In this document: in pieces, positions 197 through 18,327 of the stretch
Position numbering within the stretch: the stretch's first letter is position 1
Layout: each line of letters begins with the position of its first letter
NCBI GenBank assembly: GCA_003056265.1
Contig: NBVN01000007.1
Coordinates: 16,381-48,380 of the forward strand
Reading direction: 5' to 3'
Length of the DNA: 32,000 bases
Source: Zestosphaera tikiterensis
GTDB lineage: Archaea > Thermoproteota > Thermoprotei_A > Sulfolobales > NBVN01
Program-made: the position numbers and the translations under genes
Notes under the pieces: model-generated
Database searches by the model: none
Told to the model about the DNA's origin: nothing
Seen by the model: the letters and a program-made list of their open reading frames with translations, nothing else

Positions 197-252
197 TCAG
201 AAATACTTGCTATAGAATACTTTAATTGATGTTTACTATTTGCCAGTCATTT

Positions 253-1622: not shown

Positions 1623-1676
1623 ATTTCCACCATTTATATATTTACTAAGAGGGTATATAAACTTTTAGGAGATAAG

Positions 1677-1719
1677 TTCTAATAGTAGATATGTTCACTG
1701 AACATATCTACTATTAGAA
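1677..1719. repeat. 43-bp palindrome with perfect 21-bp arms around one central base
   Basis: TTCTAATAGTAGATATGTTCA-C-TGAACATATCTACTATTAGAA, verified base by base. It lies just upstream of the TATA box of the 1622 operon. Confidence 0.9.
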
Positions 1720-2255
1720 TATTCCACTAAACAAACAGAAAACTCCATCCATGATATTTTGAAGAGATTATGTTCTGATAACTTAAATGCTAACGCCCTA
1801 TGCTTCTAGTGATAAGTTTAAATTAGGGGTAGTAAAGAAATAATTGTAGGGTCAAATGAATAAAGACAAATTAGAGACTCTGCTAACCGCAATGAAAGAA
1901 CTGAAAGAACATTTGGAGAGATCTCGATAACAGAATCTACCCTGTTTGTGGCAAACTGATATATGCTACAGTTTGATACGATGGTCAGAACCAATAATAA
2001 TAATTTTTATGATATTTCATTGAAAGACCTAGAGTAAAACATTGCAGAGAGAAGCGGTTAAAAGAGACTGAAAGAGAGAAAGAAATAAGTAAATGGGAAA
2101 AGCTGTTATATACTAGATGTTGTTAAAGGTTAGAAAGTCTTTAACTTAGAAGACTTCCTAGCCCATAAGAGAGGTAGGGTCCTAAAGGATCCCCTCCTTA
2201 TCTGATTACGTGACCCCACCATCACTACTAAGCCCAAAACGGTCTCTGGTGCTAC

Positions 2256-2930
2256 TTAACTAGTCTTTAGATTGTTCTTACCTAGCTTTAGCCCGTATTT
2301 CATCGCTGCCTCGTTTACTTTCTTTACGAACCTGGGGTAGCTTATCCTGTAGTTTTCGGCTCTCGCCATTCTCCATAAGTCTTTCTTGCTTAGGTATGGG
2401 TATTTACGGATTAGCTTAACGACGAATTCCTCGGGGATCGACGGTGGTCTGCCGACGTGCTTCCCTTCCTTCCTAGCTCTTTCCATCCCCGCTTTGATTT
2501 TCTCCTTCAATGCCTCAACGTATTTTTGGTAGCCGTACGCTAAAGCCCTCACAACTATGTCGAACATTAACTTCCTCAACGCTTCGTCAGGTATTGCCGT
2601 CAGCGACTGAAGCCACTCCTCTTGATAAGTTATTACGTTCACGCCCCTCTCCCTTAAGCCGTCGAGTGTTTTAACTAGGTAGTCATACCTTCTTGAGATC
2701 CTGTCAAGCGAAAAAACGAGTATAGCGGCACCCTCCTTAGAAGCTAACTCAACCGCCTTAACCCACCCAACCCTCTCCTCAGGCTTCGTTTCATACCCGC
2801 TAACACCCGGATCCTCAAACACTCCAACAACCTCAACACCCCTCGACTCGGCGAACCTCCTTAAAGCAAGAACTTGATTCTCAACCTTCTGATCCTCCGT
2901 CGACACCCTAGCGTAGATCACGGCCTTCAA
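2256..2930 (-). CDS. small serine recombinase (resolvase/invertase architecture: N-terminal catalytic domain plus C-terminal HTH)
   Basis: 224 aa. The N-terminus KAVIYARVSTEDQ carries the catalytic-serine motif, and LDRISRR is the conserved resolvase arginine cluster. The basic C-terminus is HTH-like (LSKKDLWRMARAENYRISYPRFVKKV). The start is TTG at 2930 or GTG at 2921, with a TTTAAATA TATA box about 40 nt upstream on the minus strand. Confidence 0.9.
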   Translation of the reverse strand: MKAVIYARVSTEDQKVENQVLALRRFAESRGVEVVGVFEDPGVSGYETKPEERVGWVKAVELASKEGAAILVFSLDRISRRYDYLVKTLDGLRERGVNVITYQEEWLQSLTAIPDEALRKLMFDIVVRALAYGYQKYVEALKEKIKAGMERARKEGKHVGRPPSIPEEFVVKLIRKYPYLSKKDLWRMARAENYRISYPRFVKKVNEAAMKYGLKLGKNNLKTS

Positions 2931-3050
2931 TTCTTCATCCCCGTAATCAAAATACTTAATACCCTTATTTAAACGTTTTGTTTATGAAAACACCCCTTAA
3001 GAAACAGTTGCGAAACCACCCCCTTCCGTTAACAAACCCTATAAAGAGGT

Positions 3051-3106
3051 AATGAGACAAACCTTCACCGTATATGCTAGTTATTATATGTTAGGAAAAT
3101 CTAAAA
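3051..3106 (+). repeat. partial copy (S) of the repeat field found at 23331..23411
   Basis: An ungapped hand alignment of 3051..3100 with 23331..23380 gives 34/50 identities. Shared runs include AATGA-ACAAA, ATGCTAGTT and TTATAT, followed by GAAAATCTA. Confidence 0.5.
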
Positions 3107-3132
3107 TTGCGTTTTTCTAGTGTTTAGGGTCT

Positions 3133-3294
3133 TTAGTTTTTAAAGCTGGTTCGTCGGTAGATCCCTCTTTCAGTTCTTTCTATATACTCTAAATCTTTCT
3201 TTAAGTTCTTAAGTTCTTCCTTCAATTCGACAAAGTGAAGAGTTCTAAGGGTTGTGGTGGAATGCCAACACTTATAAACTTTGTCATTAAGCAT
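3133..3294 (-). CDS. possible 53-aa coiled-coil ORF (below the track size cutoff)
   Basis: ATG at 3294..3292 and stop at 3135..3133. It reads MLNDKVYKCWHSTTTLRTLHFVELKEELKNLKKDLEYIERTERGIYRRTSFKN. There is no homology evidence, so it may be spurious. Confidence 0.2.
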   Translation of the reverse strand: MLNDKVYKCWHSTTTLRTLHFVELKEELKNLKKDLEYIERTERGIYRRTSFKN

Positions 3295-3511
3295 CAAATA
3301 CGTTGAAGCCCCTGATAGTACGTTTTTTAAACTTAATAGAGAGCAACCTCCCGGACATCCTTAGGGAAGATGGTAAGCTAAAATCGCCTAAGTCCATAGT
3401 AGAGAAACTTCATAAGCTATTGAAACAGGATTGATACGTACGTTACTAGGGATTCTTAGAAAGATGACTTACGTTGAAGAAAGACCTTTAATTTCTTTCT
3501 AGTGAACGAAG

Positions 3512-5425
3512 TTACTTATGGATTACAGTTAACGTTGGGGTTTTCTCAGGTTCAGCAAGTCTAGTGATTATGACGTACTTACCGTATTTACTAAGTTCAG
3601 AGACAACTTTGTCGAATCTCCTAGGGTCGAAAGCTACTAAAGCTTCATCCGCTATAATGGGTGCCACACCTTGATATTCCTCAATGATCTTTAACCTATA
3701 GCCTACGAGTACGGCTATCAACGCTAGAGCTGTTCTCTCGCTAGTGCTTAAAACCTCAATCGGTTGTTCGTATTCTCTACCACTTGGGAATTTTCTAATA
3801 ACTCTAATATCAAATACTCGCTTAAGCATACCAGTAGTGGGGTCTTTCTCCTCCCTTTTATATAGCCTCACACCTTTAATCCAAGTGAAGCCCAGTTCTT
3901 TAATGACTTCAGAAGCTATTCTAGAGAACTCATCGCTTATACGTGATAGTGTTTCATATAATTCCTTCTCAACGTTTTCAAGTTCTTTACTTGTCTTTTC
4001 GATCTTCTCCCTTACTTCAGTTAATTTCCTACCAGCTTCACTTCTTTTAGCGATTTTTTCTTCTAAATCTCTTATGTGTTGCTCTACTTCACCAAGCCTT
4101 CTCTCTAGCTCAGCTCTTCTGTCAGCAGCAACGCGTTCTTCTTCTGTAAGTTGCTTTCTTAATTCTTCCAACTCTTTTTCAATTAACCCCCTCTCGTTTT
4201 TAAGCCTTGCTACCTCATCTTTATAATGTTCAAACGCTCTCTCAAGCTCTTCAATCCTCCTCTTAAGAGATGGTAGCTTAACATCCACGATTTCTCTAAC
4301 TTCGTTGTATTTCTTCTGTAGACTCTCTAACTCCTTCCATAATTCCTTAAGCTTTTCATTTGCGTTAGCTATCCTAACCTCATAATCTTTTACTATAGAC
4401 TCCTTACTCTTCATAACCTCGTCTTCTACTTCCACCTCACGTCTAGACCAGAACTCTTCAGGGTTTTCAATAGGTTTACCGCATACTGGACACGCAGATG
4501 CTTTTGTAGCTTTAGCTAGGTGTACAACTGGGATTCTAGCGTCTTGACCAACGAGATACTCTCTACGTTCGTTCTCCAGCTTCTTTATAAGGCTGTCAGT
4601 CCTGTCTATTTCTCCTTTAATCTTTGCTAACTCTTCCTCAGGATTCTCGTGAATGGCGTAAAACTCTCTAACCATAGTTTCATACCTCTCTAGATCCGCA
4701 CGTGCGTCATCTATAGCTTTCGCAGTAGTTGCTATGATGCCCTCAGGTTTCTCTAGGTCTTCTATTCTCTTACTGACTTCACCAAGTCTTCTATTGAGGG
4801 TGGCTATCCTATCTTGTAAACCTCTTACTCTTTCAATAGATATAGCCCTCAGCTTCTTAAGCTCTTCCTCTAAATCCTTCTTTAACTCCTCATATTTCTG
4901 TCTTTCCTCACTTACCTTCTTAAGTTCTTCAACATCCTTAAGGAGGAGGTTCTCCTCAGATTTTAGCTTATCTAACTCCTCCCTTAAGCTTTCCCTCATC
5001 TTTTCATACTCATCAAGCCTGAAGACCTTAACTAAGTAGTCAGTAATATCGGCGTTTGCTTGAGTTACAACCCTTCTGGCAACCTCCCCTAAGTAAGGAT
5101 CTAATATGACATACTTCAACCTATCGCTAACGATAACAGGCTTAGATTCAACCTCTAAAACCCTACCGTTTACTCTCTTAAACCTCCTAATGAATTCCCT
5201 ACTGTCAATAACTATCTTTATATATCCCTCATCAGCATCGATGTTTAGAAGCTGTTCAAGAGGGATAGTGTTGGGTGCGTACATCGCTAGTATAGCTTTA
5301 ACAAGGGAGGTTTTACCAGCAGCATTCGGTGCTACAACTTCGTTTAACCCTTCACTAAACTCAAACTTATGTTTGCCTATAAGACCTCCTACATTTTCAA
5401 CTTCGACCACTATCATGGGCACCAC
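3512..5425 (-). CDS. Rad50/SMC-like ABC ATPase with long coiled coil and central CxxC hook-like motif
   Basis: 637 aa. Walker A is APNAAGKTS (aa 32-40). About 400 aa are E/K/L-rich heptad sequence, with CPVCGKP at aa 312-318, exactly mid-protein. The C-terminal signature-like LSTSERTALAL and Walker B IIADEAL are present. No Mre11, kleisin or nuclease gene lies adjacent. Confidence 0.85.
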   Translation of the reverse strand: MVPMIVVEVENVGGLIGKHKFEFSEGLNEVVAPNAAGKTSLVKAILAMYAPNTIPLEQLLNIDADEGYIKIVIDSREFIRRFKRVNGRVLEVESKPVIVSDRLKYVILDPYLGEVARRVVTQANADITDYLVKVFRLDEYEKMRESLREELDKLKSEENLLLKDVEELKKVSEERQKYEELKKDLEEELKKLRAISIERVRGLQDRIATLNRRLGEVSKRIEDLEKPEGIIATTAKAIDDARADLERYETMVREFYAIHENPEEELAKIKGEIDRTDSLIKKLENERREYLVGQDARIPVVHLAKATKASACPVCGKPIENPEEFWSRREVEVEDEVMKSKESIVKDYEVRIANANEKLKELWKELESLQKKYNEVREIVDVKLPSLKRRIEELERAFEHYKDEVARLKNERGLIEKELEELRKQLTEEERVAADRRAELERRLGEVEQHIRDLEEKIAKRSEAGRKLTEVREKIEKTSKELENVEKELYETLSRISDEFSRIASEVIKELGFTWIKGVRLYKREEKDPTTGMLKRVFDIRVIRKFPSGREYEQPIEVLSTSERTALALIAVLVGYRLKIIEEYQGVAPIIADEALVAFDPRRFDKVVSELSKYGKYVIITRLAEPEKTPTLTVIHK

Positions 5426-5778
5426 CTGTTAAGCACGTGTTCGGTTATACCGAGCTTTTTAAGAGTTTCAACTTCGCTAGAGCTAAGACCCTTTGAAAGC
5501 CATCTTTCAGCAGCTCTCCTGATCTCCTTAGGTATCCAGTCTTCGTCAATATACCTAGCATACATCAGAGACGTCTGCAGACCCCTCTCCTTGGCTTTGA
5601 GATATGCTTGGTAAACGAAAGTAACTGAGTAACCATCGTCGAGACTGAGTAAGTATACAATATCGCCTCTCTTTAATACATCTACATGAATGGGATGCTT
5701 TTGCTTTATCTTGTTTAGCTTTGTCACAGTATTCCTATACAAGTTCAAATCTGGATCTTCAACCTTTAATATCAGCAC
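5413..5778 (-). CDS. hypothetical 121-aa protein with a C-terminal HTH-like segment, coupled to the SMC-like ATPase
   Basis: GTG start. Its stop overlaps the SMC-like gene start by 13 nt. The C-terminus LSSSEVETLKKLGITEHVLNRW resembles a short HTH. Confidence 0.6.
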   Translation of the reverse strand: MLILKVEDPDLNLYRNTVTKLNKIKQKHPIHVDVLKRGDIVYLLSLDDGYSVTFVYQAYLKAKERGLQTSLMYARYIDEDWIPKEIRRAAERWLSKGLSSSEVETLKKLGITEHVLNRWCP

Positions 5779-5842
5779 GTGTTATTTCACCAATAAATGG
5801 TAATGGTTTCAGAAGTATTTAAGCATTAATACAGAAATATTA

Positions 5843-5880
5843 AATAAAATCATTAATATAATAATATTAATGATTTTATT
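5843..5880. repeat. A/T-only palindrome with 17-bp arms and a 4-nt centre
   Basis: AATAAAATCATTAATAT-AATA-ATATTAATGATTTTATT, verified. It lies in the 129-nt gap between the AAA ATPase stop and the 121-aa ORF start. Confidence 0.9.
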
Positions 5881-5907
5881 AATACAAAAATATTAGAGCT
5901 TTAGAGT

Positions 5908-6666
5908 TCATATTACTTCGAGTCTCTCCAGCTTCTCTATGTAGTGCCTTATCACTATTCTCTCCACTTCTCTTGCGGATCTCGGCAACGGATTCATTGA
6001 CGTTATCTCCTCCTTAACTCTGTTGTAGGGTACTCCGAGTTCTCTGCACCTCTTCTCTGCTATTGCTAAAGCCGTATCTATGTCGAGGGGTTTGAACTCT
6101 ATCGGGTAGAGTCTGTCTATTAGTGCTTTATCAACTAACTCGTACCAGTTGGTTGTTGCTATGACTCCTATTCTAGAGGTGTCTAGCTCGTCAAGCATGT
6201 GGAAGAAGACGTTGTCTTGGGCTATATGCCAAGACTCTATGCCTTCTCTCCCGCGTGACATGAATATTGACTCTACGTCGTCGAAGAGTATTATGGTATA
6301 CCCCATAAGTTTTTTCGATTCTTCAAAAATCTCAACGATCCTTATCTCAGATTCGCCATATAGCGGTCTAGCTATGTCGGATGCGTCTACGAGGATAAGG
6401 TATACGTCCTTAAACTTTTTACCTAATTCCCTAGCGACTGCGTAAGCAAGGCTGGTTTTCCCTGTTCCAGGCTCTCCATAGAGTAGGAAACCTTTAATAC
6501 CTCTTTTAACTCCCTCTCTAAACTGATAGTAGAATGTCTTGAAGATTAGGTTGAATATCCTCTTATATTCCTCACCTACAAACCTACTGACGTCATAATC
6601 TTCAGGAACTCCAACAGCCTTAATTACCTTTAAAGGTTTGCTAAGTTCTTTAGCTCTTCTACTCAT
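5908..6666 (-). CDS. classical-clade AAA ATPase, single bare AAA module
   Basis: 252 aa. Walker A is GEPGTGKTS and Walker B is IILFDDVE. GESEIRIVEIFEE matches the GESE..vR.lF motif of FtsH/Cdc48/Vps4-type AAA proteins, and sensor-1 is VIATTN. There is no N-terminal substrate domain. Confidence 0.9.
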   Translation of the reverse strand: MSRRAKELSKPLKVIKAVGVPEDYDVSRFVGEEYKRIFNLIFKTFYYQFREGVKRGIKGFLLYGEPGTGKTSLAYAVARELGKKFKDVYLILVDASDIARPLYGESEIRIVEIFEESKKLMGYTIILFDDVESIFMSRGREGIESWHIAQDNVFFHMLDELDTSRIGVIATTNWYELVDKALIDRLYPIEFKPLDIDTALAIAEKRCRELGVPYNRVKEEITSMNPLPRSAREVERIVIRHYIEKLERLEVI

Positions 6667-7123
6667 AGGTTAATCTCCTTTTTCTAGATTCGTTTTCTAG
6701 GATATGCTTAATCATTATGTACGTGTCTTTAGAAATTTCATATTCTTCGCAATATCCAGCAACTACTCCACCCATAATTGACCCGCTCTCTACATCAAAA
6801 CGATCTTTTATGAATTTAAGCACCAGTTCATTTCTTTTTCTGCCTTCTGAATATTCTGAAGACGTAGAAGGTGAGGAGTACTTCTCTTCTATCGCATCTA
6901 TAGGTATAGATTCCTTATGTTCATAAACGTGTATGTACCCGTGATTGTAGCCCGGATCGAACACGACGTAGTACTTTCTATCTTTACTTACGTAGAATAA
7001 GTAAAGACGACGGAAGTGCTCTCCCCACTTAGTGTTTTCACAGATGTTTACTTTAATACCCTCTATAGATCCTTTCGTATCTCTCCCTAACTCTCCTAAC
7101 ATACCTTTTAACACCTTCTTCAT
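6659..7123 (-). CDS. hypothetical 154-aa protein
   Basis: Its stop overlaps the AAA gene start by 8 nt. No motif recognised. The start may be the second Met at 7102. Confidence 0.6.
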   Translation of the reverse strand: MKKVLKGMLGELGRDTKGSIEGIKVNICENTKWGEHFRRLYLFYVSKDRKYYVVFDPGYNHGYIHVYEHKESIPIDAIEEKYSSPSTSSEYSEGRKRNELVLKFIKDRFDVESGSIMGGVVAGYCEEYEISKDTYIMIKHILENESRKRRLTYE

Positions 7124-7961
7124 GCATTCTACACCATAGAATGTTTAACCTATATCCGTTTGAAGTAACTTGCTCAATGATGTCGTTACTTACCATAAAT
7201 TCAAACGCTTCAGTTCTAACGCTTCTCCACCACTCAATCGGCGGTCTTTTCTTATTTTCATCACTAAGGAAGTAGTTATCTACGTAGTTCACTCTAGCTA
7301 CCTCCAACACATCCCTGATTCTCATTGAATGCGATTCAAGACCTGATAAAGTGTATATCATTGGAAGCTTGATAAACCAAGGTATCACGGGTTTCTCGCC
7401 GAGAGTTCTATGTAGTTTAACTGCTGTGCTCATTATGTAGACACCTATTAACCCGCTTATGACACTTAGCATTTCTTTAAATTGTCTAGGGTCGATGAGC
7501 GTTACTAGGTGTTGAGCTACGGGACCTACAAGTTGGAAGAATTCATCGTTTATTCTATACACATATCGAGGATCGTCACTACTAACCAAGATTTTATAAT
7601 AAGGTAGCGGCTTCAGATAATCCAGCAATCTATCTGTCGGTATCTGAAAAGCATAGCTCCATTCTTCAAGTATGTCCTTAGATATGTACAGTTTTGTCAA
7701 GTCTTTACTATAGTACGCTTCACCACAACGGTCAACAACAGACCATAGAATCTTAAGAGGTTTCTGCCTGAAGAAGCGGTACCTGAGCAAGACGTCTCTA
7801 AACCTAGAAGCTAAAGCATATGCTTCACTAGGGCTAGAAAGTACGCGAGTTTCCTTCTTTGATGTTTGTGCGTTTAACTCATCAAGTATTGCAAGTATAG
7901 TCTCCTCTGTAAGGGGTTTGTAGTTTTTCAATGCCCAAACATTTACTGTTGGTTGAGCCAA
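7053..7961 (-). CDS. hypothetical 302-aa protein with an Arg-rich C-terminal tail
   Basis: Long ORF in an operon. It overlaps the upstream gene by 19 nt and the downstream ORF by 50-71 nt. No motif recognised. Confidence 0.7.
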   Translation of the reverse strand: MAQPTVNVWALKNYKPLTEETILAILDELNAQTSKKETRVLSSPSEAYALASRFRDVLLRYRFFRQKPLKILWSVVDRCGEAYYSKDLTKLYISKDILEEWSYAFQIPTDRLLDYLKPLPYYKILVSSDDPRYVYRINDEFFQLVGPVAQHLVTLIDPRQFKEMLSVISGLIGVYIMSTAVKLHRTLGEKPVIPWFIKLPMIYTLSGLESHSMRIRDVLEVARVNYVDNYFLSDENKKRPPIEWWRSVRTEAFEFMVSNDIIEQVTSNGYRLNILWCRMHEEGVKRYVRRVRERYERIYRGY

Positions 7962-8824
7962 GGTCTCCCCCTCGAAAGTCTTCTCTCCCTCTTCAACATG
8001 TAGTATCTACGGTAAGCTGGCGCTACCACCATGTTTGCGAAAGTTCCTGAGACTTCTAGGGGGTATGTCCTCACGATTATTTTGTTGTCGTAAAGCACTC
8101 CTATAGCTTTAAAGTATTCAACTTCAAACCTATCCCTTAAAGGTCTTAAAGACGCTATGAGTTTCTTAGCTTCACTCCACTCGGTTGGTTCTATCGTTGG
8201 TTTAGTAACTACCGTTCCATCTCTTTTAACGTAGGCTAAAGGCGTTAGCAAACCAATCATCGTGGTGTAGCTTTTTGGAAGTCTTGAAGTTTTCTGCATT
8301 ACGTAAAGTGAGCTTATACCTGACACAACTTTATGGGGGTAGGAAAACGCGTCTGATTCAAAACCTGCGAGTGATTTAAAATCAACTTTTTCAGCAACGT
8401 AAACCGCTACGTGTCTAATAAGCTCGTTGATTACGTCGGGTTTAAGCCTGATTTTACTTGGTGTTGTATTTACAACGTCGGCAAGCCTTAAGTCTTCCAT
8501 AGATTTAAAGGCTGACCTAACGTTATCGACCTCATCCGGTTCAAAACCCGGCACTTCATCCTCAGAAATTTCATATAGGTTCATATCCTTCTTTAGGAAG
8601 CCGTAGCTAGCCTTAGCTAAAGAATAAACAAGCACCTTCTCTAGGCTTTTAGAAGTGAAGGGAAGGAAGTAAATTAACCCAGCGAAAAACGAAGAAACGT
8701 CTACATGACCCTGCACAACAGCTTCAAGAGCTACATCAACTGTAATACCCGCAAACCTTCTTAAGGAAACCCATCTCTTATCTATATATCTATAATCCAC
8801 GTAAACTGACAAATGCACCACCAA
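7943..8824 (-). CDS. hypothetical 293-aa protein, first gene of the AAA sub-operon
   Basis: GTG start at 8824. A TATA-like AAAGTTTATAAGCT lies on the minus strand about 20-30 nt upstream. No motif recognised. Confidence 0.7.
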   Translation of the reverse strand: MVVHLSVYVDYRYIDKRWVSLRRFAGITVDVALEAVVQGHVDVSSFFAGLIYFLPFTSKSLEKVLVYSLAKASYGFLKKDMNLYEISEDEVPGFEPDEVDNVRSAFKSMEDLRLADVVNTTPSKIRLKPDVINELIRHVAVYVAEKVDFKSLAGFESDAFSYPHKVVSGISSLYVMQKTSRLPKSYTTMIGLLTPLAYVKRDGTVVTKPTIEPTEWSEAKKLIASLRPLRDRFEVEYFKAIGVLYDNKIIVRTYPLEVSGTFANMVVAPAYRRYYMLKRERRLSRGRPWLNQQ

Positions 8825-8938
8825 TAAGTATTTCTTTTTCGTAGCTTATAAACTTTATATCTAGCTAGTCGTAAAACTCAAAGCAACGTCTTAATTAAAC
8901 TTTATTTTAAGTAGATGAAGAAACAATGCCAAAACCCT

Positions 8939-9115
8939 TTATATTCTATTTATAAGGTATAATACATTGTTTAGTGCTCCAAGTTTGAAGTCGGCTCTAT
9001 TATCTCTCCTTAGTACTTCGTCGAGTGTTCTGCTGAGGTCTTTTCTCAGCTTAATCTTCTCTATTCTTACTTTCTGTATCGCTCCATTTGGTAGGGAGTA
9101 CTCGTATTCACGCAC
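8939..9115 (-). CDS. possible 58-aa ORF between the CRISPR array and the AAA operon (below the track cutoff)
   Basis: GTG at 9115..9113 and stop at 8941..8939. It reads VREYEYSLPNGAIQKVRIEKIKLRKDLSRTLDEVLRRDNRADFKLGALNNVLYLINRI. The reading frame is also open upstream of the GTG. No homology evidence. Confidence 0.25.
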   Translation of the reverse strand: MREYEYSLPNGAIQKVRIEKIKLRKDLSRTLDEVLRRDNRADFKLGALNNVLYLINRI

Positions 9116-9207
9116 TTCCTTCTCCCTACCTAGGTGGTTATAGTTTTTCCCTCAATCTTCAGCTATTAGGACATGAAGTTGAAGTATAGACCTAATCGGA
9201 TGCCACT

Positions 9208-9530
9208 CTTTCAGTCTTTTTCTATTGTTTCGATACCCGAGGTCTCTCAAAGCCCTCATAGTGTCGTAGATCAGCTGCGTCTTTCAGTCTTTTTCGATTG
9301 CTTCGGAGTATGAAGTGCTTGACTACGCCACGAAATACGTGGTGGGGGAGGACACCGCTTTCAGTCTTTTTCTATTACTTCCCTACTTCTTTCGTAGTCT
9401 TGAGGTTCTGCACTACGTGTTGCCTGAGCCATCTTTCAGTCTTTTTCTATTACTTCCCATATCCGCTTCTAATTTCGGCTTCGCCTTCCAGCCTAGACTC
9501 TAATACCTTTCAGTCTTTTTCTATTACTTC
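9208..9530 (-). CRISPR. cas-less CRISPR mini-array with 5 repeats of 24 nt and 4 spacers of 49, 53, 51 and 50 nt
   Basis: Repeats lie at 9208-9231, 9281-9304, 9358-9381, 9433-9456 and 9507-9530. The three rightmost are identical (plus strand CTTTCAGTCTTTTTCTATTACTTC), and the two leftmost each carry 2 mismatches. The reverse complement GAAGTAATAGAAAAAGACTGAAAG ends in GAAAG like crenarchaeal type I-A/III repeats, so transcription is on the minus strand with the leader to the right. A possible further decayed repeat lies at 9137-9160 (13/24 matches, correct spacing). Confidence 0.8.
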
Positions 9531-9658
9531 AAGTTATTGTTTGACGTAGGAGTATTTAAATATTTCCGTGGTGGTTTTCGGAAAGACCATCAAACACCAT
9601 CAGATGCCGACCATCACGTTGTCGGGTCGTAAACGTATGATTTATACTCCAGTTGTTA

Positions 9659-9682
9659 GAAGCAATCATAAAAGACTGAAAG
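9659..9682 (+). repeat. orphan CRISPR repeat in the opposite orientation to the array
   Basis: GAAGCAATCATAAAAGACTGAAAG on the plus strand matches the reverse complement of repeat 2 at 22/24 and the consensus at 20/24. It is separated from repeat 5 by 128 nt. Confidence 0.65.
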
Positions 9683-9763
9683 GAATCATCTAGTTAAATC
9701 GGATTAAGTCCGATTACCGGACACTTCACGTGTGCTTTGATGGACACCCCCTATAACCCCCTA

Positions 9764-9771
9764 TTTAAATA
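9764..9771 (+). promoter_or_regulatory. TATA box TTTAAATA within the conserved 13-mer TTAAATACTGTCC
   Basis: It sits 34-41 nt upstream of the ATG at 9805. The identical 13-mer occurs at 16511..16523. Confidence 0.45.
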
Positions 9772-9804
9772 CTGTCCGGTTACCGGATTAAGTGGGGTGA
9801 GTAC

Positions 9805-9966
9805 ATGACGAAAGGAGGAGAATCTATCTCTCCGCGGTTAATGCGTTCGGTTTACGCCACGTATAAAATCATATGCGGGCACGGCAGTATTAAGCTCGCA
9901 GATCTGGAAGTTCTGCAAGAACCTCAAAAAACTTGTAACAGAAAGGCTGTTTTTCTACTTAAATAA
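9805..9966 (+). CDS. possible 53-aa ORF (below the track cutoff)
   Basis: ATG at 9805 is preceded by GGTGA about 7 nt upstream and by the TATA box at 9764, and the stop is at 9964..9966. It reads MTKGGESISPRLMRSVYATYKIICGHGSIKLADLEVLQEPQKTCNRKAVFLLK. Confidence 0.35.
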   Translation: MTKGGESISPRLMRSVYATYKIICGHGSIKLADLEVLQEPQKTCNRKAVFLLK

Positions 9967-9981
9967 CTAAACTAATGTAAT

Positions 9982-10083
9982 TAGATTTTCTGGGTTTTAG
10001 GCATGAGAGTAAGCATACACTCTAGTAGAGTGTAAATTTACACTTAGGAAGGATTAGCTTTTCGAGAGCAAGCCTGAAAAATC
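9982..10083 (-). repeat. copy L of a ~100-nt element: TAGATTTTC, then palindrome GTGTAAATTTACAC, then ATTAGCTTTTC, then TGAAAAATC
   Basis: The reverse complement aligns with 23540..23649 and shares exact runs of 22 nt (ATTTACACTCTACTAGAGTGTA), 13 nt (GAAAAGCTAATCC) and 9 nt (GAAAATCTA). The strand label is relative to copy R. Confidence 0.75.
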
Positions 10084-10145
10084 ATTAAGGGTATTGCTTT
10101 TCCGTTGTTTCCCAACAGCCCCTAATACAGGAATATTAATGGTTT

Positions 10146-10266
10146 CATTATAACTGGGGTTAAAGGGGAAGCATTATAACGGGAATTATAGAGAAAACCA
10201 CTATAACTCTAGTTAATATGCACGCGCTGAAGCCGCTTTTTAAACCCCTGCATATTATAGTGGGGG
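10146..10266 (+). repeat. five iteron-like copies of (C)ATTATA(A/G)(C) upstream of the wHTH gene
   Basis: CATTATAAC lies at 10146 and 10172, ATTATAG at 10185, CACTATAAC at 10199 and ATTATAG at 10254. The first and last copies are followed by TGGGG. A TTTTTAAA TATA-like box lies at about 10237. Confidence 0.55.
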
Positions 10267-10291
10267 CGCGTTCACCCCAAGCTGGAGGTGA

Positions 10292-11320
10292 GTGAGGAGA
10301 GGTGGGGATGGGGTGTCCACGCGGTTCGATGTTGGGAATTATGTAGGCGAGGGTGTGGGGAGGAGGACGCACGCGACTGAGGATCCGCTGGAAGAAGCGC
10401 GGAGGCTGTACAGGGAGAAGGGGATCAGCTACACGCTGTGGTGGTTCATCAGAGAGATATGGGCTAGGCGTAGGCACGCGGTAAAGTTCGAAGACCTATT
10501 CAGGTTGCACCAGTACATCGCAGGTGCCCGGAGTAAGAACTCAACTAGAAAGGCGCTGAAGCGGTTGGAGGAATACGGGCTGATAGAGAACCTAGGCGAC
10601 GGGTACTACAAACCGCTTATCATGGATCAGGCAATAGTCGAAGGTTCCATAGACTTTAGCAGAATTAGAACAAGGGATCAGGTGTTAAGGAATCGCAAGG
10701 ACGCTGTTGAAACGTCCATGCAGCTGAAGGATATGCCTAGGGAGTTGATGCCTGTGGTTAAAGAAGCACAGAAGCTGATAGAGCGGGGCGATAAGTGGAA
10801 GGCGGTAGACCTAATAGCACACACGTTATTACCAATCCGCAAAACCGGAGTCCTTATAGCTAGGAAGGACGACCTGTTTTTATATTATGAGAGGAAGACG
10901 GATAAGATGCACATGATAAGGAGCTGGCGACTCACAGCACTACTAGACTTTCTAGGAATAAAAGATGAAGTACTAGTCGCACACAGACACAGCGAGGCCG
11001 ACGGCATTATCCGCAAGTTATTCGGTTCACACGACAACGCCCGGAGGCTACACTACTTACTAAAGGAGAGGGGCTGGTTCGAATACCCGGCTGAAAACTA
11101 TTTCTATAGAATCTTCGAGAACCCCATGACCCACGACTGGTGGATCTCGGTCTACAAGCTAAACAGAGAAACAGACAGAATGGAAGAAGACCTCAGAGTA
11201 GAGGTCGGCAGAAGCGCAATCACGGGGATTCAGGTGAAGGCCGGCACAATAGTGACGAGGGAGCACATTAAAAAAGAGAATGAAGACACATATTTCCGCC
11301 GCACGAAGGGGTGGATCTAG
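10292..11320 (+). CDS. winged-helix DNA-binding protein with a ~200-aa C-terminal domain of unknown function
   Basis: 342-aa ORF with a GTG start, so the true start is uncertain. STRKALKRLEEYGLIENLGDGYYKPL is a typical wHTH wing. G+C is visibly higher than in flanking DNA. Confidence 0.75.
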   Translation: MRRGGDGVSTRFDVGNYVGEGVGRRTHATEDPLEEARRLYREKGISYTLWWFIREIWARRRHAVKFEDLFRLHQYIAGARSKNSTRKALKRLEEYGLIENLGDGYYKPLIMDQAIVEGSIDFSRIRTRDQVLRNRKDAVETSMQLKDMPRELMPVVKEAQKLIERGDKWKAVDLIAHTLLPIRKTGVLIARKDDLFLYYERKTDKMHMIRSWRLTALLDFLGIKDEVLVAHRHSEADGIIRKLFGSHDNARRLHYLLKERGWFEYPAENYFYRIFENPMTHDWWISVYKLNRETDRMEEDLRVEVGRSAITGIQVKAGTIVTREHIKKENEDTYFRRTKGWI

Positions 11321-11368
11321 CTCTGAAGTGGCATAAAGAATGGAGTATCAGGCACTCCTTTCATTGTT

Positions 11369-11575
11369 TTAATGGGTTCTGAATTCCGGTTTGGACAATA
11401 TCAGTATTCCTAATACTAGTACTAGGGTTTGGAACATGGCAATGAACCCCGCTGGTAGATTCCCCGCAATAGCTTCAGAGATAGATTCAAAGTACTGAGC
11501 TTGATGTGAATCACTGCCGCCGTTAATCTGGGTACCGGGATCAGATTGCCTCCCAGATGATGAGATTGGCTTCAC
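11369..11575 (-). CDS. possible 68-aa protein with a C-terminal TM helix, downstream of the M48 protease
   Basis: GTG start 43 nt after the protease stop. The C-terminus FIAMFQTLVLVLGILILS is hydrophobic. No other support. Confidence 0.3.
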   Translation of the reverse strand: MKPISSSGRQSDPGTQINGGSDSHQAQYFESISEAIAGNLPAGFIAMFQTLVLVLGILILSKPEFRTH

Positions 11576-11617
11576 TATGCTCTGAGTATCTTAATAGTAC
11601 TTGAGGTTCTGCTTGTC

Positions 11618-12622
11618 TTAGTGTACTGGTTTTCCTTTCTGCTCTTTGTCGGGGGTGCCGAGTTCTATCCTTGTGTGATACGTCATTAGCAAGGCTAGAC
11701 GTAGCGGTAAAGGTGGGTGAGTATAGTAAAAGGGGTTTATAATCAGGTCTAGGATCCATTTTGGGAAGTTCCAGCTGTATTTCAGTAGTGTGTTATATAT
11801 TTGCTTAGGCGTGGCTGAAGCAGTAATGACGTCTATTATCTCTTTTGCTTCCTTTATTTTTACGTTGTCTATGAATGATGAGTACCTTCTCAACGAACCA
11901 TATACATAAGTTTTTATTAATGCTGCCATAAAGGGTTGTAAACCAGACTTTAGAAGTGCTTCCCTATCGCACTCGTGCTCATTAACCCAGCTAATCACTG
12001 TTGCGGAGAGGGTTATGGCAGCTTCGGAAAACACTAAATATAGAATTGTTAACATAGATATAAGTGAAATTTCACGTAAGAGAGTTATCAGAAGGGCTAT
12101 GCCTGTTACCGCATAAAGCCAAGAATAATCTATAAAAGACGTAAATAAACCAAGCTTACGATGCTTCGCATGACCCGATTCATGGTGTATAACTGCTTTG
12201 AGTTCTTCTTCGGAAAGCACTTCTTTAAGACGGGAGGAAACACATATTATCTTGCCCCGATAGTCATACCAAGCATTTGCGACGTCGCTGCGACAAACGA
12301 TATATTTAATTCCGTCTAACTCCTCCTCTTTTCTTTCTAAGCACCTGAGGCTAAAACGCAACCTTATTGCACGTACCAATACTGCCATCACAAACAGTAC
12401 AACTACTAATATTATGATCGACTGTAGTACTAACAGCACGACGCATAAAAATAAGGCAAAAACAGCTACAGAAAACGCGATGGCTCTCTTCCTTGCTACC
12501 TGAGGATTACCGCCGAAAACGTAACTTCGATAATGCTGTGATAATTCATAGAGAAAGAACAAGTACGCTATGGCTTGAGCGAAAGCAGCTACAGTTATGG
12601 ATAACAGGTCGAGACTATCCAC
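11618..12622 (-). CDS. membrane zinc metalloprotease, M48 (HtpX/Ste24-like) family
   Basis: 334 aa. There are several N-terminal TM helices, the HExxH motif in VIHHESGHAKH, further TM helices, and the C-terminal YTHPPLPLR matching the M48 THPxxxxR motif. Confidence 0.85.
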   Translation of the reverse strand: MDSLDLLSITVAAFAQAIAYLFFLYELSQHYRSYVFGGNPQVARKRAIAFSVAVFALFLCVVLLVLQSIIILVVVLFVMAVLVRAIRLRFSLRCLERKEEELDGIKYIVCRSDVANAWYDYRGKIICVSSRLKEVLSEEELKAVIHHESGHAKHRKLGLFTSFIDYSWLYAVTGIALLITLLREISLISMLTILYLVFSEAAITLSATVISWVNEHECDREALLKSGLQPFMAALIKTYVYGSLRRYSSFIDNVKIKEAKEIIDVITASATPKQIYNTLLKYSWNFPKWILDLIINPFYYTHPPLPLRLALLMTYHTRIELGTPDKEQKGKPVH

Positions 12623-13126
12623 CCTATCACCTTTACCTGATTACTCAGGTTACTAGACGATACTACCACCTGCATGTTAATTACAGCACCGTAATCGACC
12701 CTCCCGCTTACCTCAAACTTAGTCTCACTCATGGTACCACGTGTTCTTGAAGGTTTCAAACATATATATGCGTGGTCATGCGTGAGGACGTCCCAAAATA
12801 CACACCCATGGTTTGGCTAAAACAGTAAGAGTACCGCAAAACTAAAGACCTAACCGAAAAACAGTCCCGCAACCACCTTAAGAAAGTGCCGAAACGATAC
12901 CGCACACCGTGAAATCAACGAATATAAAGTACGTATGTATGTGGTTCGTATACGACATAGAACTCGCTAAACCGCAACGCCATACCCTCCCTTCAGGTAG
13001 ATGTAAATTTACACTTATGTATGAAGCCGATCGCAAATCTCTTAAGCATGGAATTAAAACTGGCAGCAACATTTTGCGATATAGCTCAAATGTTGCAGAT
13101 GCACCTACACCTAAGTGAAACCATGC

Positions 13127-13145
13127 CTTTGATAAGCTTAACAAA
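13127..13145. promoter_or_regulatory. copy a of the TTGATAAGCTTA(T/A)CAA motif (CTTTGATAAGCTTAACAAA)
   Basis: The 19-mer is identical to the one at 19851..19869. It lies 77 nt upstream of the 13222 start codon. Confidence 0.6.
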
Positions 13146-13221
13146 ATAAAGTTAAGTATGAGCTATGTAGCGACATGTTTATAAGCTTCTATAACACTAT
13201 AGTATATAGGGGATTAGGCTT

Positions 13222-13557
13222 ATGGTGATAAGTGGTATAGGGTTATCTACACCAGAAGAGCCTAAAGACGTTAAGAACTTCATAAAGTCCGTAAGAGCAG
13301 GACTTGGCGAAAGTCCCAATATGGACTACGACTCTCTCGCTGTTTGGAGTTTCAATAGACTTCCCAAATATCTCTGGAAGCTCTGGGGGGATGAGTTGAT
13401 AAAGAGGGGTATTACATGGCAGAAGTTTCTAAGGATTTTGAAGCTCCATACTATAGATATTGTAGAGTGGGCGTTAAGGGATTCACTAAGCTGGGAGGAG
13501 CTTGTTAAAAGGATCGAGAAGAGCATTGATAGTTATTCGAGGAGTGGGAATAGATAA
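13222..13557 (+). CDS. hypothetical 111-aa protein, first gene of the methyltransferase operon
   Basis: Its stop and the MTase start share TAATG (1-nt overlap at 13557). No HTH or other motif recognised. Confidence 0.6.
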   Translation: MVISGIGLSTPEEPKDVKNFIKSVRAGLGESPNMDYDSLAVWSFNRLPKYLWKLWGDELIKRGITWQKFLRILKLHTIDIVEWALRDSLSWEELVKRIEKSIDSYSRSGNR

Positions 13558-14774
13558 TGGGTTGTGCGTACCATGTAAAAGATATGCATTTAGTCAGACT
13601 GACTTACCCTGGAAAGATTAGCAAAGAGGAACTCTATAAAATAGTGCAACCTGCAGAATTAAAGGTCGTGAAGGAGTTTAGAGTAGGCAAGCCACTTATA
13701 GATGATGGTTGGAGAAACATGCTGATACTAGGAGATAATCTTCCCGTTCTTAAAGCTCTTCTACAAGATGATAGAATTCGTGGAAAGGTTAGACTCATAT
13801 ACATAGATCCACCCTTCGGTACAGGATCTATTTACCGCGGTAAGAGGCATATAAGTGCAAGCTCAGAGGATGAAATAGCTTATCAAGATATGTCGCTAAG
13901 CCCAGAATACCTAGAGTTCCTGCGAAGGAGATTAATATTTCTATACAATTTGTTAGCCGAAGATGGATCTATATATGTTCACATGGATGTAGATGCTATA
14001 CACTATGTGAAGGTGTTAATGGATGAAATATTCGGCATAGAGAATTTTGCAAATGATATAGCCAGAGTTAAATGTAACCCAAAAAACTTTGAGAGAAGAG
14101 CTTACGGGAATATTAGAGATTCGATACTCTTTTACGCTAAGAACTATGGAAAAAATGTATGGAATGAGCCTAGAGAGCCTTATACAGAAGAGGAAATTGA
14201 GAGACTCTTTCCTAAAGTGGATAAAGATGGCAGAAGATATACCACAGTACCTCTACACGCTCCTGGCGAAACAAAGAATGGCCCTACAGGTCAATCTTGG
14301 AGAGGGATCAAACCACCGCCTGGGAGGCATTGGAGATATCCTCCAGAAGTCCTAGATGAATTAGATAGAAGGGGTCTTATTGAGTGGAGTAGCACAGGCA
14401 ACCCTAGACTTAAGATATATGCTGATGAATACGTAAAGAGAGGTAAGAGAATACAAGATGTGTGGCTGAACTATAAGGATCCAGTCTATCCTGAATATCC
14501 TACAGAGAAAAACTTAGAAATGGTTATGAAGATTGTTGAAGTGTCTAGTAATGTTGGAGATATTGTATTGGACGCATTCTGCGGCTCAGGCACCTTGGCT
14601 GTCGCAGCTGAGAAGCTAGGCAGGAAGTGGATATGTATAGACATTTCACCGCTTGCTATAGAGATAGGTTTGAAAAGAATATTGGAGCTCAAGACTTATA
14701 GACCCTTTGTACTAGTTAATGCTACTGGTAGAGAGTTACCTGAAAGGCTGAGAAAGTTCCTCGAAGGTATCTAG
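13557..14774 (+). CDS. beta-class DNA methyltransferase (N6-adenine or N4-cytosine)
   Basis: 405 aa. Motif IV IYIDPPFG precedes motif I VLDAFCGSGT, which lies near the C-terminus. This circular permutation is typical of the N6_N4 MTase family (M.PvuII/M.RsrI type). Confidence 0.9.
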   Translation: MGCAYHVKDMHLVRLTYPGKISKEELYKIVQPAELKVVKEFRVGKPLIDDGWRNMLILGDNLPVLKALLQDDRIRGKVRLIYIDPPFGTGSIYRGKRHISASSEDEIAYQDMSLSPEYLEFLRRRLIFLYNLLAEDGSIYVHMDVDAIHYVKVLMDEIFGIENFANDIARVKCNPKNFERRAYGNIRDSILFYAKNYGKNVWNEPREPYTEEEIERLFPKVDKDGRRYTTVPLHAPGETKNGPTGQSWRGIKPPPGRHWRYPPEVLDELDRRGLIEWSSTGNPRLKIYADEYVKRGKRIQDVWLNYKDPVYPEYPTEKNLEMVMKIVEVSSNVGDIVLDAFCGSGTLAVAAEKLGRKWICIDISPLAIEIGLKRILELKTYRPFVLVNATGRELPERLRKFLEGI

Positions 14775-15626
14775 GAGATACTCCTCTAGGAAAAGGGCCG
14801 ACATAACAACTTTATCACCTACAGCTACCTTTATCACTCTGTCTGTATACTTCTTATAATACCATACAATGCCATCAATTAGAGCTATGCCCTTTATTTT
14901 TACTCCTTTCATGACTCTCAGCATCTCCTCCATTTTTTCAACGAAGTTAAGTGTATTGCCTAGGTCTCTGTTTTGGGATCCACCTGGCGTGCTCAGAAAC
15001 CTTGCCTCACCCACTATATAGATATCTTTAACTTTAGCTATTACATCGCGATTAAAGAACCCCTGTTCTGGTTCTTTTAGTCCAAGTCTATTCTTTATGA
15101 AATCTGCTATTGATTCATCTGAACCTGCGTAAATACATATTTCATTGCTCCTACATTCTAGTAGCTGATTTGGATTGTTTACAACGTTAAAAGGCTCTTT
15201 TCTAAACTTTCTATTTATCCACTCCTTGAACTTCGCTCCAAGCATTCGGTTTATATCTTTAGGTCTTTCTACTCCTCTTATTATGTTGTCTAGACCCAGA
15301 GAAGCTGTGGCCTCGGCTAATATCCTAATAATTTGAGGGTTACAACTTATGACCTTTTTACGATTAGAATCTCCTAAGTGACGCAATAGAGCTGCATAAG
15401 GATGTTCTATAGGGAATGGATAATCCTTTAAACTAATTAGAAGAGTAACTAAATCTTCGTATTTTTCGCTTTGATAGAGACGTACTATCTGGTTCTTAAC
15501 GTTATTTGGAAGAGGCCTTTCAGGAGGAAGTTCTGCAGGATAAATCTCAAGCAATTTATCAAGATAATTGCTTTTCTGAGCTAATTCCCATGTTTTCAAC
15601 GTCCATGGATTAAGCCTATCTAACAA
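14736..15626 (-). CDS. hypothetical 296-aa protein; candidate type II restriction endonuclease partner of the methyltransferase
   Basis: It is convergent with the MTase and the 3' ends overlap by 39 nt. A possible PD-(D/E)xK-like segment is RDVIAKVKDIYIVGEARF (D...E-x-R). The functional call is mainly contextual. That it is a real coding gene is considerably more certain than the listed confidence, which refers to the endonuclease assignment. Confidence 0.55.
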   Translation of the reverse strand: MLDRLNPWTLKTWELAQKSNYLDKLLEIYPAELPPERPLPNNVKNQIVRLYQSEKYEDLVTLLISLKDYPFPIEHPYAALLRHLGDSNRKKVISCNPQIIRILAEATASLGLDNIIRGVERPKDINRMLGAKFKEWINRKFRKEPFNVVNNPNQLLECRSNEICIYAGSDESIADFIKNRLGLKEPEQGFFNRDVIAKVKDIYIVGEARFLSTPGGSQNRDLGNTLNFVEKMEEMLRVMKGVKIKGIALIDGIVWYYKKYTDRVIKVAVGDKVVMSALFLEEYLLDTFEELSQPFR

Positions 15627-15707
15627 TAGTAATCCCCCTATAGATGTTTCTGAAACTCAATATATGTTTACTGAGTTGATGATCAGGCTCTTGCTAGAGA
15701 TTAGAGT

Positions 15708-15813
15708 TAGATTTTCAAAGCTTCAAGCGTAGGGCTTACCCTTATATACTGCTTAAGTGTAAATTTGCACCTACAGAGAAATTAGATTTTCTGGATTTGC
15801 CCCCTGAAAATCT
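15708..15813 (-). repeat. copy M of the ~100-nt GTGTAAATTT(A/G)CAC element, in the same orientation as copy L
   Basis: The module order is TAGATTTTC (15708), GTGTAAATTTGCAC (15757..15770), ATTAGATTTTC (15781), TGAAAATCT (15805), the same as in L. AGATTTTC-N14-GAAAATCT can form an 8-bp hairpin. Confidence 0.7.
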
Positions 15814-15913
15814 GCTATTGCAGAGATTCCACTTGCAATTTTAGTTATAGACACTTCCCATTACTTTGTTTAGCTTGATGCCGCATGATTATTTCATACG
15901 CATAACCCCGCCT

Positions 15914-16426
15914 TCACCCTTTCTTTTTAAGTATTTTCTCTAGTCTTTTATGTACTGCCGATTTGCTAAGCCCTACCTCCTTAGCTATTTCTCTAATCGA
16001 TAATCCCTTACTATGTAGTGCTAGGATCTTCAGGTCTAGGAACTTATCCCTGCCTTCTTTAGCTGATGTGTTGCCTGTCTTAGCAGGTTCCTCAACCTCC
16101 TTACTTTTGCTTCCTTTACTTAAGATCACGTCCTCTAGGGTTAATAGTCTGTCCTCAAACTCTTTAACCCTAGCTCCGTAGTCCGCAATCCCTGCTTCGA
16201 TGGAGTTAAGCCTCTCAGTAACTTCCTTAAGGTTTTTAAGGTCTTCTTTAAACCTCATGAACTCACTTGAAAGCTCTTTAAAACCATCCCTCAACACGTT
16301 AACCTCACCCCTTAAGGTTATGAGGCCGTAGTAAGCTTTAACTAAGAAATAACCCTCAACACACAAACCAACAGCGAAAGCAACGAAAGCGAGGAAAGCA
16401 ATCAAATCCATAGCCGCGTCCACCAC
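15914..16426 (-). CDS. membrane-anchored coiled-coil protein with a C-terminal HTH
   Basis: 170 aa. The N-terminal TM helix is LIAFLAFVAFAVGLCVEGYFLV, followed by a heptad-rich middle. The C-terminus GLSIREIAKEVGLSKSAVHKRLEKILKK is a LuxR/sigma-r4/resolvase-type HTH. Confidence 0.7.
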   Translation of the reverse strand: MVDAAMDLIAFLAFVAFAVGLCVEGYFLVKAYYGLITLRGEVNVLRDGFKELSSEFMRFKEDLKNLKEVTERLNSIEAGIADYGARVKEFEDRLLTLEDVILSKGSKSKEVEEPAKTGNTSAKEGRDKFLDLKILALHSKGLSIREIAKEVGLSKSAVHKRLEKILKKKG

Positions 16427-16430
16427 CCCT

Positions 16431-16543
16431 GGACAGTGGACAGTCGGTGGACACTGTCCACCCGTCCAAAAACAAAACTTAAGGTGGGGAACACCTTAAA
16501 AACACGCAACTTAAATACTGTCCACCACCGTCCTAGTGGACAG
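16431..16543. promoter_or_regulatory. cluster of six GGACAG/CTGTCC hexamers upstream of the TM-HTH gene
   Basis: GGACAG lies at 16431, 16438 and 16538, GGACAC at 16449, and CTGTCC at 16454 and 16518. GTGGACAGTCGG occurs twice, and GTGGACA-C-TGTCCAC is palindromic. Confidence 0.5.
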
Positions 16544-16637
16544 TCGGGCACTTAAAATAAAGTTAGAAAGGGATGTGGTTTTTATAACTGTCTCATATCT
16601 ATCTAATGGGTTTGTAAACCTGATTTACTACTTAACT
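16518..16637 (+). repeat. direct repeat A (partner B at 22281..22457)
   Basis: The first 53 nt match B at about 47/53. Later shared blocks are TCTCA(T/C)ATCTATCTA and an exact 18-mer GTTTGTAAACCTGATTTA. B carries an extra ~57 nt. Confidence 0.8.
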
Positions 16638-16730
16638 AACCTACTATGGGTTAAAACCGTCTTACATTTATTTTCTATTTAGGGAAACTACAGCAACCCA
16701 TTAAGGGTAGGAGGAGATACTTAAAGGATG

Positions 16731-18222: not shown

Positions 18223-18327
18223 TGCACTATACTGTCTAAAAAAGATCGGCTCATTATAACGTTGCTGATGCGTGTTTGAATAAAAGTTATGAACATGGAT
18301 GCTAGGTATTGAGCTAGGTGTTAAGTA

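Follow-up and report, generated by a model that had tools for sequence, protein, structure and literature searches.

A cas-less CRISPR mini-array beside a cas1 relic on a plasmid-like replicon of Zestosphaera tikiterensis

Where does a CRISPR array come from when no cas gene accompanies it, and could it still be of use? The question is raised by a short array in the archaeon Zestosphaera tikiterensis, on contig NBVN01000007.1 of assembly GCA_003056265.1. The 32,000-nucleotide stretch analysed here, referred to as the window, is C15:16381-48380 in our numbering (G000 is this genome and C numbers are the contigs of its assembly; other G numbers, such as G020 and G048, denote related genomes, and L numbers, such as L042 and L046, the related loci compared). 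A preliminary description made from the window alone had recognised five repeats with long spacers, a putative leader of 128 nt and one further repeat in inverted orientation beyond it, and had proposed that the array is borne by a mobile genetic element (MGE). We consider it likely that a complete CRISPR-Cas locus has eroded to what is now carried on a 33.5-kb circular plasmid-like element, that the array is still transcribed, and that its CRISPR RNAs (crRNAs) are used in trans. Evidence of its origin comes from a stub of cas1 between the leader and the inverted repeat, set out below together with the explanations that compete with this reading.

The array, its leader and a cas1 stub

The array comprises five direct 24-nt repeats with start-to-start distances of 73, 77, 75 and 74 nt (starts at 9208, 9281, 9358, 9433 and 9507; Table 1), and the coordinates and the 49-53 nt spacing given in the preliminary description were reproduced. 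On the + strand the repeats read CTTTCAGTCTTTTTCTATTACTTC and variants, on the minus strand GAAGTAATAGAAAAAGACTGAAAG. We take the minus strand to be the crRNA sense because the repeat then ends in GACTGAAAG, which puts the leader on the high-coordinate side and makes transcription leftward, as had been proposed. The 8-nt handle at its end is of the GAAAG type that is typical of crenarchaeal repeats. The three leader-proximal repeats are identical and the two older ones deviate only at sense positions 4, 5 and 9, while the 3' half of the repeat, including the 8-nt handle ACTGAAAG, is invariant across the array. Wherever one of the five repeats or the inverted copy carries a substitution, it is at position 4, 5 or 9-11, and these positions differ between genomes as well. 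Matches to the repeat at 18 or more of 24 positions are confined, in the whole 32-kb window, to these six sites and to 2051-2074, and a chance origin is therefore excluded. What we have is a real CRISPR array without cas genes: its direct repeats number more than the minimum of three and are constant in length, and the spacers between them are all unique and close to one another in length; its repeat family is associated with cas genes elsewhere (with cas3' on host contig C8, and with the cas6...cas1 cassettes of relatives); and a leader bearing a promoter predicted from its sequence lies on the side of the newest repeat.

Two weaker sites deserve mention. The 24-mer at 2051-2074 retains the 3' GACTGAAAG, has three mismatches at positions otherwise invariant in the family, and no promoter motif was seen upstream of it. 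The repeat decay that had been described at the left end of the array, from 9137 onwards, did not withstand scrutiny, since a match of 13-14 of 24 positions is reached by 0.4-1% of all positions in the window, and the site is not counted here as a repeat.

The 128 nt between the first repeat and the inverted repeat had been read as leader throughout. Comparison with relatives instead divides them into an 83-nt leader, a 42-nt relic of the 3' end of cas1 and, last, the triplet TAA. A TATA box, TATTTAAATA, lies at 9553-9562 in the leader and precedes the first repeat by 23-32 nt. The leader is homologous to leaders in five related genomes (BLAST homology runs from the first repeat outward, with E=7.7e-8 for G048 and E=2.9e-7 for G020), the TATA box occupying the same alignment columns in all six sequences. 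In relatives the leader starts right after the stop codon of a same-strand gene, 63-84 nt before the first repeat, and that gene is cas1 (the open reading frame (ORF) of G020 matches TIGR00287 with E=1.9e-14 and PADLOC Cas1 with E=5e-18). The Cas1 C-termini of relatives (TEYKPYIYDPTS in G048, KYEAYTYDPASGS in G020 and NYEAYIYDPTSGTS in L042, each followed by the stop) lie at the same distance from the first repeat, and the stop codon of the relic here is 83 nt from it. The layout had also been described as divergently transcribable, with a palindromic TATA box between the repeats. Sequence comparison with relatives gave no evidence for divergent transcription from this box, which is conserved in position as the promoter of a one-way array; in view of the cas1 relic and the leader alignment, the idea of a shared bidirectional leader of 128 nt was rejected.

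Table 1. Features of the locus, in coordinates of the window
Feature	Position	Strand	Remarks
CRISPR mini-array	9208..9530	-	repeats 9208-9231, 9281-9304, 9358-9381, 9433-9456, 9507-9530
Four unique spacers	9232-9280, 9305-9357, 9382-9432, 9457-9506		49, 53, 51 and 50 nt
CRISPR leader, 83 nt	9531..9613	-	homologous to leaders of cas1-adjacent arrays in relatives
cas1 3'-end relic	9614..9655	-	13 codons and stop, QLEYKSYVYDPTT then stop; stop TGA at 9614-9616
Inverted solitary repeat GAAGCAATCATAAAAGACTGAAAG	9659..9682	+	adjoins cas1 relic, only TAA (9656-9658) between
Decayed repeat-like 24-mer GAAGCGGTTAAAAGAGACTGAAAG, the third	2051..2074	+	18/24 match; about 180 nt from serine recombinase gene
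Putative degenerate terminal repeat	9137..9160	-	not robust, 13-14/24 match
Window on 33,529-bp circular replicon	1..32000	.	window 17150-32000 is a repeated copy of C15:1-14851

The repeat family and the CRISPR-Cas systems of the host

Spacers of about 50 nt had been singled out as an oddity of the mini-array, and those of Sulfolobales are indeed mainly 35-43 bp long (Garrett et al., 2015, PMC4390879). Arrays with the repeat pattern GAAGCAATnnnAAAAGACTGAAAG are found, however, in several hot-spring metagenome-assembled genomes (MAGs) labelled Desulfurococcaceae archaeon or Sulfolobales archaeon, and the spacers of these relatives have a median length of 51 nt (interquartile range 50-54, range 38-66, n=95). 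The mini-array is statistically indistinguishable from them (p=0.48), whereas it does differ from the host array on C8 (37-48 nt; p=0.0036), and the C8 array differs from the relatives in turn (p=1e-8). Because it is C8 and not the mini-array that departs from the relatives, spacers of about 50 nt are a trait of the repeat family and its cassette, and indeed the norm for that family in related genomes, rather than a special property of the mini-array. In the arrays of one further genome, G044, spacer length is bimodal (about 35-42 and 48-60 nt).

In relatives a type I (Cas7b-like) cassette stands between two divergent arrays of the family (GAAGNAATNNNAAAAGACTGAAAG), in the order leftward array, leader, cas6, csa3, further genes, cas7, further genes, cas3', cas1, leader, rightward array. 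One array thus follows cas1 and the other cas6, the product of the latter being known by its C-terminal glycine-rich loop (GIGTSRAIGFGH); in G020 the 'array' on the cas6 side is a single repeat. Repeats of the family with ~50-nt spacers flank such a cassette at L030/L043 (G020, JAWBTQ010000007.1), L034, L037, L047 and L051, where it encodes Cas6, Csa3, two unrecognised proteins, a Cas7b-like protein, two further unrecognised proteins, Cas3' and Cas1. Four of the cassette proteins of relatives have no NCBIfam or PADLOC match, and the cassette may represent a type I variant not yet described, whose spacer ruler is longer.

The host genome itself has three CRISPR-Cas systems. A 14-repeat array at C8:216041-216933, with the repeat GAAACAATAGAAAAAGACTGAAAG that is identical to the oldest repeat of the mini-array, adjoins cas3' and homologues of the type I cassette, including a Cas7b-like protein, at the end of its contig. 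A complete type I-A locus on C3 (cas2, cas4, csa1, cas1, cas3'', cas3', cas5a, cas7, csa5, csa3) is flanked by a second repeat family, GTATCAAAAAAGAATGAATTGAAAG, and RAMP genes indicate a type III locus on C9; the repeat of the type I-A and type III systems ends in AUUGAAAG. Set beside the cas-associated arrays of the host, a comparison that the preliminary description had proposed, the mini-array repeat lies 0-2 nt from that of the Cas3-linked C8 array. The sole Cas1 found in the assembly, which is 93% complete, is that of C3 and so goes with the other repeat family. No spacer of the host was found to target the plasmid.

Origin of the locus and continued use

The inverted repeat, at its distance of 128 nt from the first repeat, matches the repeat at 9281 in 22 of 24 positions, as had been reported, and the leader-proximal repeats in 20 of 24. 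None of the 21 positions specified by the family pattern GAARNAATNNNAAAAGACTGAAAG is altered in it, and what sets it apart from the array repeats is confined to the variable triplet (CAT where they have AG(A)) and position 5. Because every pattern position is kept and the differences are limited in this way, it is, to judge from its sequence, an intact repeat of a different variant and not a decayed copy of an array repeat. Its orientation is that of the opposite array on the cas6 side in relatives, and the cas1 stub stands directly beside it. Most likely, then, it is the remaining repeat of an opposite, divergent array and marks the deletion that removed the cassette; descent from a second divergent array was one of the origins that had been suggested for it, and the stub and the matching orientation support that suggestion. 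On the simplest reading, everything from cas1 codon -13 up to the inner edge of the opposite-array repeat was deleted, which would have taken out the whole cassette and spared the inverted repeat, the cas1 stub, the 83-nt leader with its TATA box, and the five repeats with their four spacers.

A comparable arrangement was found at L046, on a 357-kb chromosomal scaffold of another MAG with a SufS-like aminotransferase and a DUF438/PAS protein as housekeeping neighbours. The order there is an inverted solitary repeat, a gap of 43 nt, the 3' end of cas1 (its last ~38 codons, KKSIWILRIKEVGKFKNSILKRFKYEAYIYDPTSVIST and the stop), a leader and a four-repeat mini-array. The break point differs from that in the window, and the architecture therefore recurs rather than having been inherited as one unit; L046 would thus be an independent second case, and it supports the deletion reading.

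On this account the spacer length of about 50 nt would be the signature of the lost adaptation module, for which reason the array is probably frozen; with the matching cas1 gone, new spacers of this length are unlikely to be added. The array would probably still be transcribed from the conserved leader promoter, and its crRNAs, bearing the 5' handle ACUGAAAG, would serve in trans to guide host effectors, namely those of the C8 type I cassette with its closely matching array repeat and possibly also those of the type I-A and type III systems, against elements that compete with the plasmid or invade the host. Such use of host Cas proteins is plausible, and a link to the host is present in that the proximal 30 nt of the plasmid leader and one repeat are copied on three large chromosomal contigs.

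Several points weigh against this account. The deletion is one of several rearrangements able to place the inverted repeat beside a cas1 stub, and the circularity of the replicon is read from the assembly. No cas6 was found in the 93%-complete assembly with PF01881, TIGR01877, PDLC01127 and the G020 Cas6 protein as queries, which weakens the case for crRNA processing in this host; the contig end truncates the C8 cassette at the place where cas6 lies in the syntenic G020 locus. The only match to cas6, a weak one at C14:277 kb, was rejected as a membrane protein. The spacers also withhold their targets. They have no protospacer in their own genome, and the search against virus and plasmid sequences that the preliminary description had proposed was equally negative: the whole locus gave only chance 28-nt matches, to a Campylobacter phage and to Priestia, in blastn comparisons with INPHARED phages and PLSDB plasmids; no exact 23-24-mer of the four spacers was found in IMG/VR; and the array and each spacer had only chance-level partial matches of at most 27 nt among 325 genomes of the order. 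With no protospacer in the databases searched, target, protospacer adjacent motif (PAM) and conflict partner were not identified. Most environmental spacers have no known match, and for this reason the missing protospacers do not argue against CRISPR membership. As to the repeats, the family is absent from IMG/VR and the exact variant from JGI metagenome contigs, and no Rfam family matches the locus.

Some of these points would also fit a locus that no longer does anything, a fossil of the lost CRISPR-Cas locus that hitch-hikes on the replicon with neither useful transcription nor effector loading. The cas1 stub is itself a sign of a decaying locus, and the same system is seen in decay in G020, where only the C-terminal half of cas1 is open and the arrays have one or two repeats; the lack of a spacer target and, in the host assembly, of a cas6 gene and of any Cas1 other than that of the C3 repeat family points in the same direction. 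We nevertheless regard a dead relic as unlikely. Continued use is favoured because the promoter is intact, with its TATA box at the family-conserved position, the three leader-proximal repeats are identical, the handle is invariant and substitutions are confined to family-variable positions, whereas chromosomal solo copies of the repeat show indels, and because the host retains a homologous interference cassette with a near-identical repeat.

These solo copies form three chromosomal leader-repeat modules of ~55-60 nt each, at C8:35881-35934, C14:458703-458757 and C2:315110-315171. Each has the layout of the plasmid leader-repeat junction (TATA box TTTAAATA, 22 nt, one repeat), with 2-4 mismatches in the proximal 30 nt of the plasmid leader and homology that ends sharply on both sides. 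The C8 module is found 3 nt beyond the stop of hypF and is directed antisense into that gene, the C14 module is in the 5' untranslated region (UTR) of a gene for 371 aa, and the C2 module is upstream of a small ORF and an Hsp20-like gene. Two of the three copies carry indels or a handle mutation, the repeats with indels being those of C14 and C2. Compared with the whole genome, the regions that follow the solitary repeats gave no significant match besides themselves, a single 18-nt match (C14 unit to C12:30830) being at chance level. Repeat debris is scattered more widely across the genome, as at C12:33415 and C12:54637, where a solitary repeat of the second family and a 19/24 copy of the first are intergenic. 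Single repeats of the same family (GAAACAATTTAAAAAGACTGAAAG) were also seen at L039, L041 and L052, on contigs of two MAGs assigned to another phylum, Methanomethylicota. Each follows a conserved, AT-rich, promoter-like sequence and immediately precedes a conserved start of coding sequence, so that 5' UTRs with solitary repeats may be widespread.

It is conceivable, if rather unlikely in our judgement, that such promoter-plus-single-repeat units (the inverted repeat of the plasmid, C8:35881, C14:458703 and C2:315148) constitute a functional class of their own and that, at the same time, ~50-nt spacers mark an undescribed type I (Cas7b-like) variant of Desulfurococcaceae with a longer Cas1-Cas2 ruler. 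The units could then serve as handles for a reversible integration of the plasmid at repeat sites of the host, as regulators, crRNA-like or dependent on Cas6, of the neighbouring genes, or as RNA decoys that shield the plasmid from the CRISPR systems of the host.

A narrower proposal is that the inverted repeat alone is functional and not a scar, whether as a Racr-like RNA anti-CRISPR decoy, as a Cas6 site that defines a transcript end or as a recombination handle for host arrays. Every family-conserved position in it is intact, and promoter-plus-single-repeat units also occur on the host chromosome. Solitary repeat units can act as RNA anti-CRISPRs, and what defines them, namely that the repeat stands singly on a mobile element, at over 100 bp from any other, and matches the host subtype, is also found at 9659-9682 (Camara-Wilpert et al., 2023, PMC10651486); stand-alone repeats have been reported on viruses and plasmids of Sulfolobales (PMC6858448), and recombination between plasmid and host arrays has been proposed (PMC9071438). 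In contrast to Racrs, however, the inverted repeat has no convincing promoter of its own and stands 128 nt from an array, beside a gene relic: what lies upstream is the cas1 stub and not the promoter motif common to the other units, and the sole TATA-like hexamer, TTTATA, falls within the relic codons and ends 13-14 nt before the repeat. With the usual spacing of archaeal promoters, transcription from this hexamer would start inside the repeat. The repeat family is, moreover, probably unstructured, and we know of no demonstration of Racr activity for archaeal repeats of this kind. The same layout on the chromosome at L046 argues for a structural by-product, and we hold a function of the inverted repeat to be improbable.

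The replicon and its place among known elements

The first and last parts of the contig, C15:1-14851 and C15:33530-48380, are 100% identical over 14,851 bp and reach both contig ends. Since identical ends are the expected signature of a circle assembled past its start, we conclude from the assembly that C15 is a circular plasmid-like molecule, of which only C15:14852-16380 lies outside the window. The orc1 gene, an AT-rich tract and ~100-nt structured elements in window 17150-32000 are single-copy on the 33.5-kb circle. The Orc1/Cdc6 initiator adjoins the AT-rich tract, and the closest PLSDB matches are genes of Methanothermobacter plasmids. Beside the array, a protein of 342 aa (window 10292-11320, +) is 38% identical (E=1e-32) to a hypothetical ORF of the 3.4-kb Pyrococcus abyssi plasmid pGT5; it has no Pfam, NCBIfam or PHROG match and no relatives were found in metagenome contigs, and the similarity suggests a family associated with plasmid maintenance or replication that would span Euryarchaeota and Crenarchaeota. 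The replicon also encodes a serine recombinase, a nucleotidyltransferase, an ASRP-type SMC-like ATPase with its AAA+ partner (the ASRP cassette), a Tsp45I-type restriction enzyme with methylase, and an M48 peptidase. Among the replicon ORFs scanned (the window and the 1.5 kb outside it) no match to a Cas family was found, which extends the initial observation that the 32 kb hold no cas gene, and no conjugation or viral structural genes were recognised; ten ORFs without a known family had no PHROG viral match. In window 9699-9800 and 9805-9966, an imperfect inverted repeat (TTACCGGACA ... TGTCCGGTTA) brackets a TATA box, CTATTTAAATAC, just upstream of an ORF of 53 aa without a family match; next to the scar repeat there thus seems to be a small gene under the control of an operator.

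The circular signature and the plasmid-type genes, both taken from the assembly, bear out the proposal that the array is MGE-borne, and the array likewise has the marks of a known MGE-borne mini-array in that its element is devoid of cas genes and its repeats are 22-24/24 identical to those of the host C8 array. That C15 is instead a chromosomal region or a mis-binned contig, and the array an ordinary chromosomal orphan in a variable defence island, is very unlikely: crenarchaeal chromosomes do carry orc1-linked origins, and the genes for conjugation or viral structure are not recognised on the contig, but the redundancy of 14,851 bp is perfect and reaches both ends, the GC content (39.6%) is below that of the six largest contigs (41-44%), no other contig of the assembly shares sequence with C15 at E<1e-20, plasmid-type genes are present, and the leader-plus-repeat copies on three large chromosomal contigs make mis-binning unlikely.

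The locus belongs to a known kind. Small CRISPR loci without cas genes are present on the Sulfolobus conjugative plasmids pNOB8 and pKEF9 (Garrett et al., 2015, PMC4390879), which resemble the present case in being crenarchaeal plasmids of tens of kb with a short array of 24-nt repeats of the host family, no cas genes and a presumed dependence on host Cas proteins. The C15 replicon differs from them in having an Orc1/Cdc6-type initiator and no recognised conjugation genes, in its host, a Desulfurococcaceae-like hot-spring MAG, and in its longer spacers (~50 nt, where those of Sulfolobales have mainly 35-43 nt); none of the spacers here was found to match a virus, and the cas1 stub documents the origin of the array. 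A similar likeness is seen with the mini-CRISPR arrays of SPV1 and SPV2, reported together with the stand-alone repeats on viruses and plasmids of Sulfolobales (Medvedeva et al., 2019, PMC6858448): there, too, an array on a mobile element has a host-like, promoter-bearing leader, repeats that match those of the host and no cas genes, with stand-alone repeats alongside. Those arrays have one or two spacers, however, whereas there are four here, and the reciprocal targeting of siblings was not found. The adaptation module that made the present spacers also appears to be absent from the host, which makes turnover of the array doubtful. Finally, orphan arrays are frequent on plasmids, and the functions proposed for them are to work in trans with Cas proteins of the host and to recombine with its arrays (Pinilla-Redondo et al., 2021, PMC9071438); the present array is short and orphaned in the same way, and both functions apply to it as hypotheses. 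Decay is one of the origins suggested in that survey, and here the cas1 3' relic and the scar repeat let it be seen directly.

Orphan arrays are common on plasmids and their origin has usually had to be guessed, while the present one, in a different lineage, has an unusually legible history. The cas1 stub and the scar repeat point to descent from a complete two-array locus, and a second genome carries the same product of decay. Spacer length, a trait of the family as a whole, can serve to tell which adaptation module supplied the spacers of an array. Should the present array act in trans, plasmid-encoded CRISPR guidance would extend to a lineage outside Sulfolobaceae.

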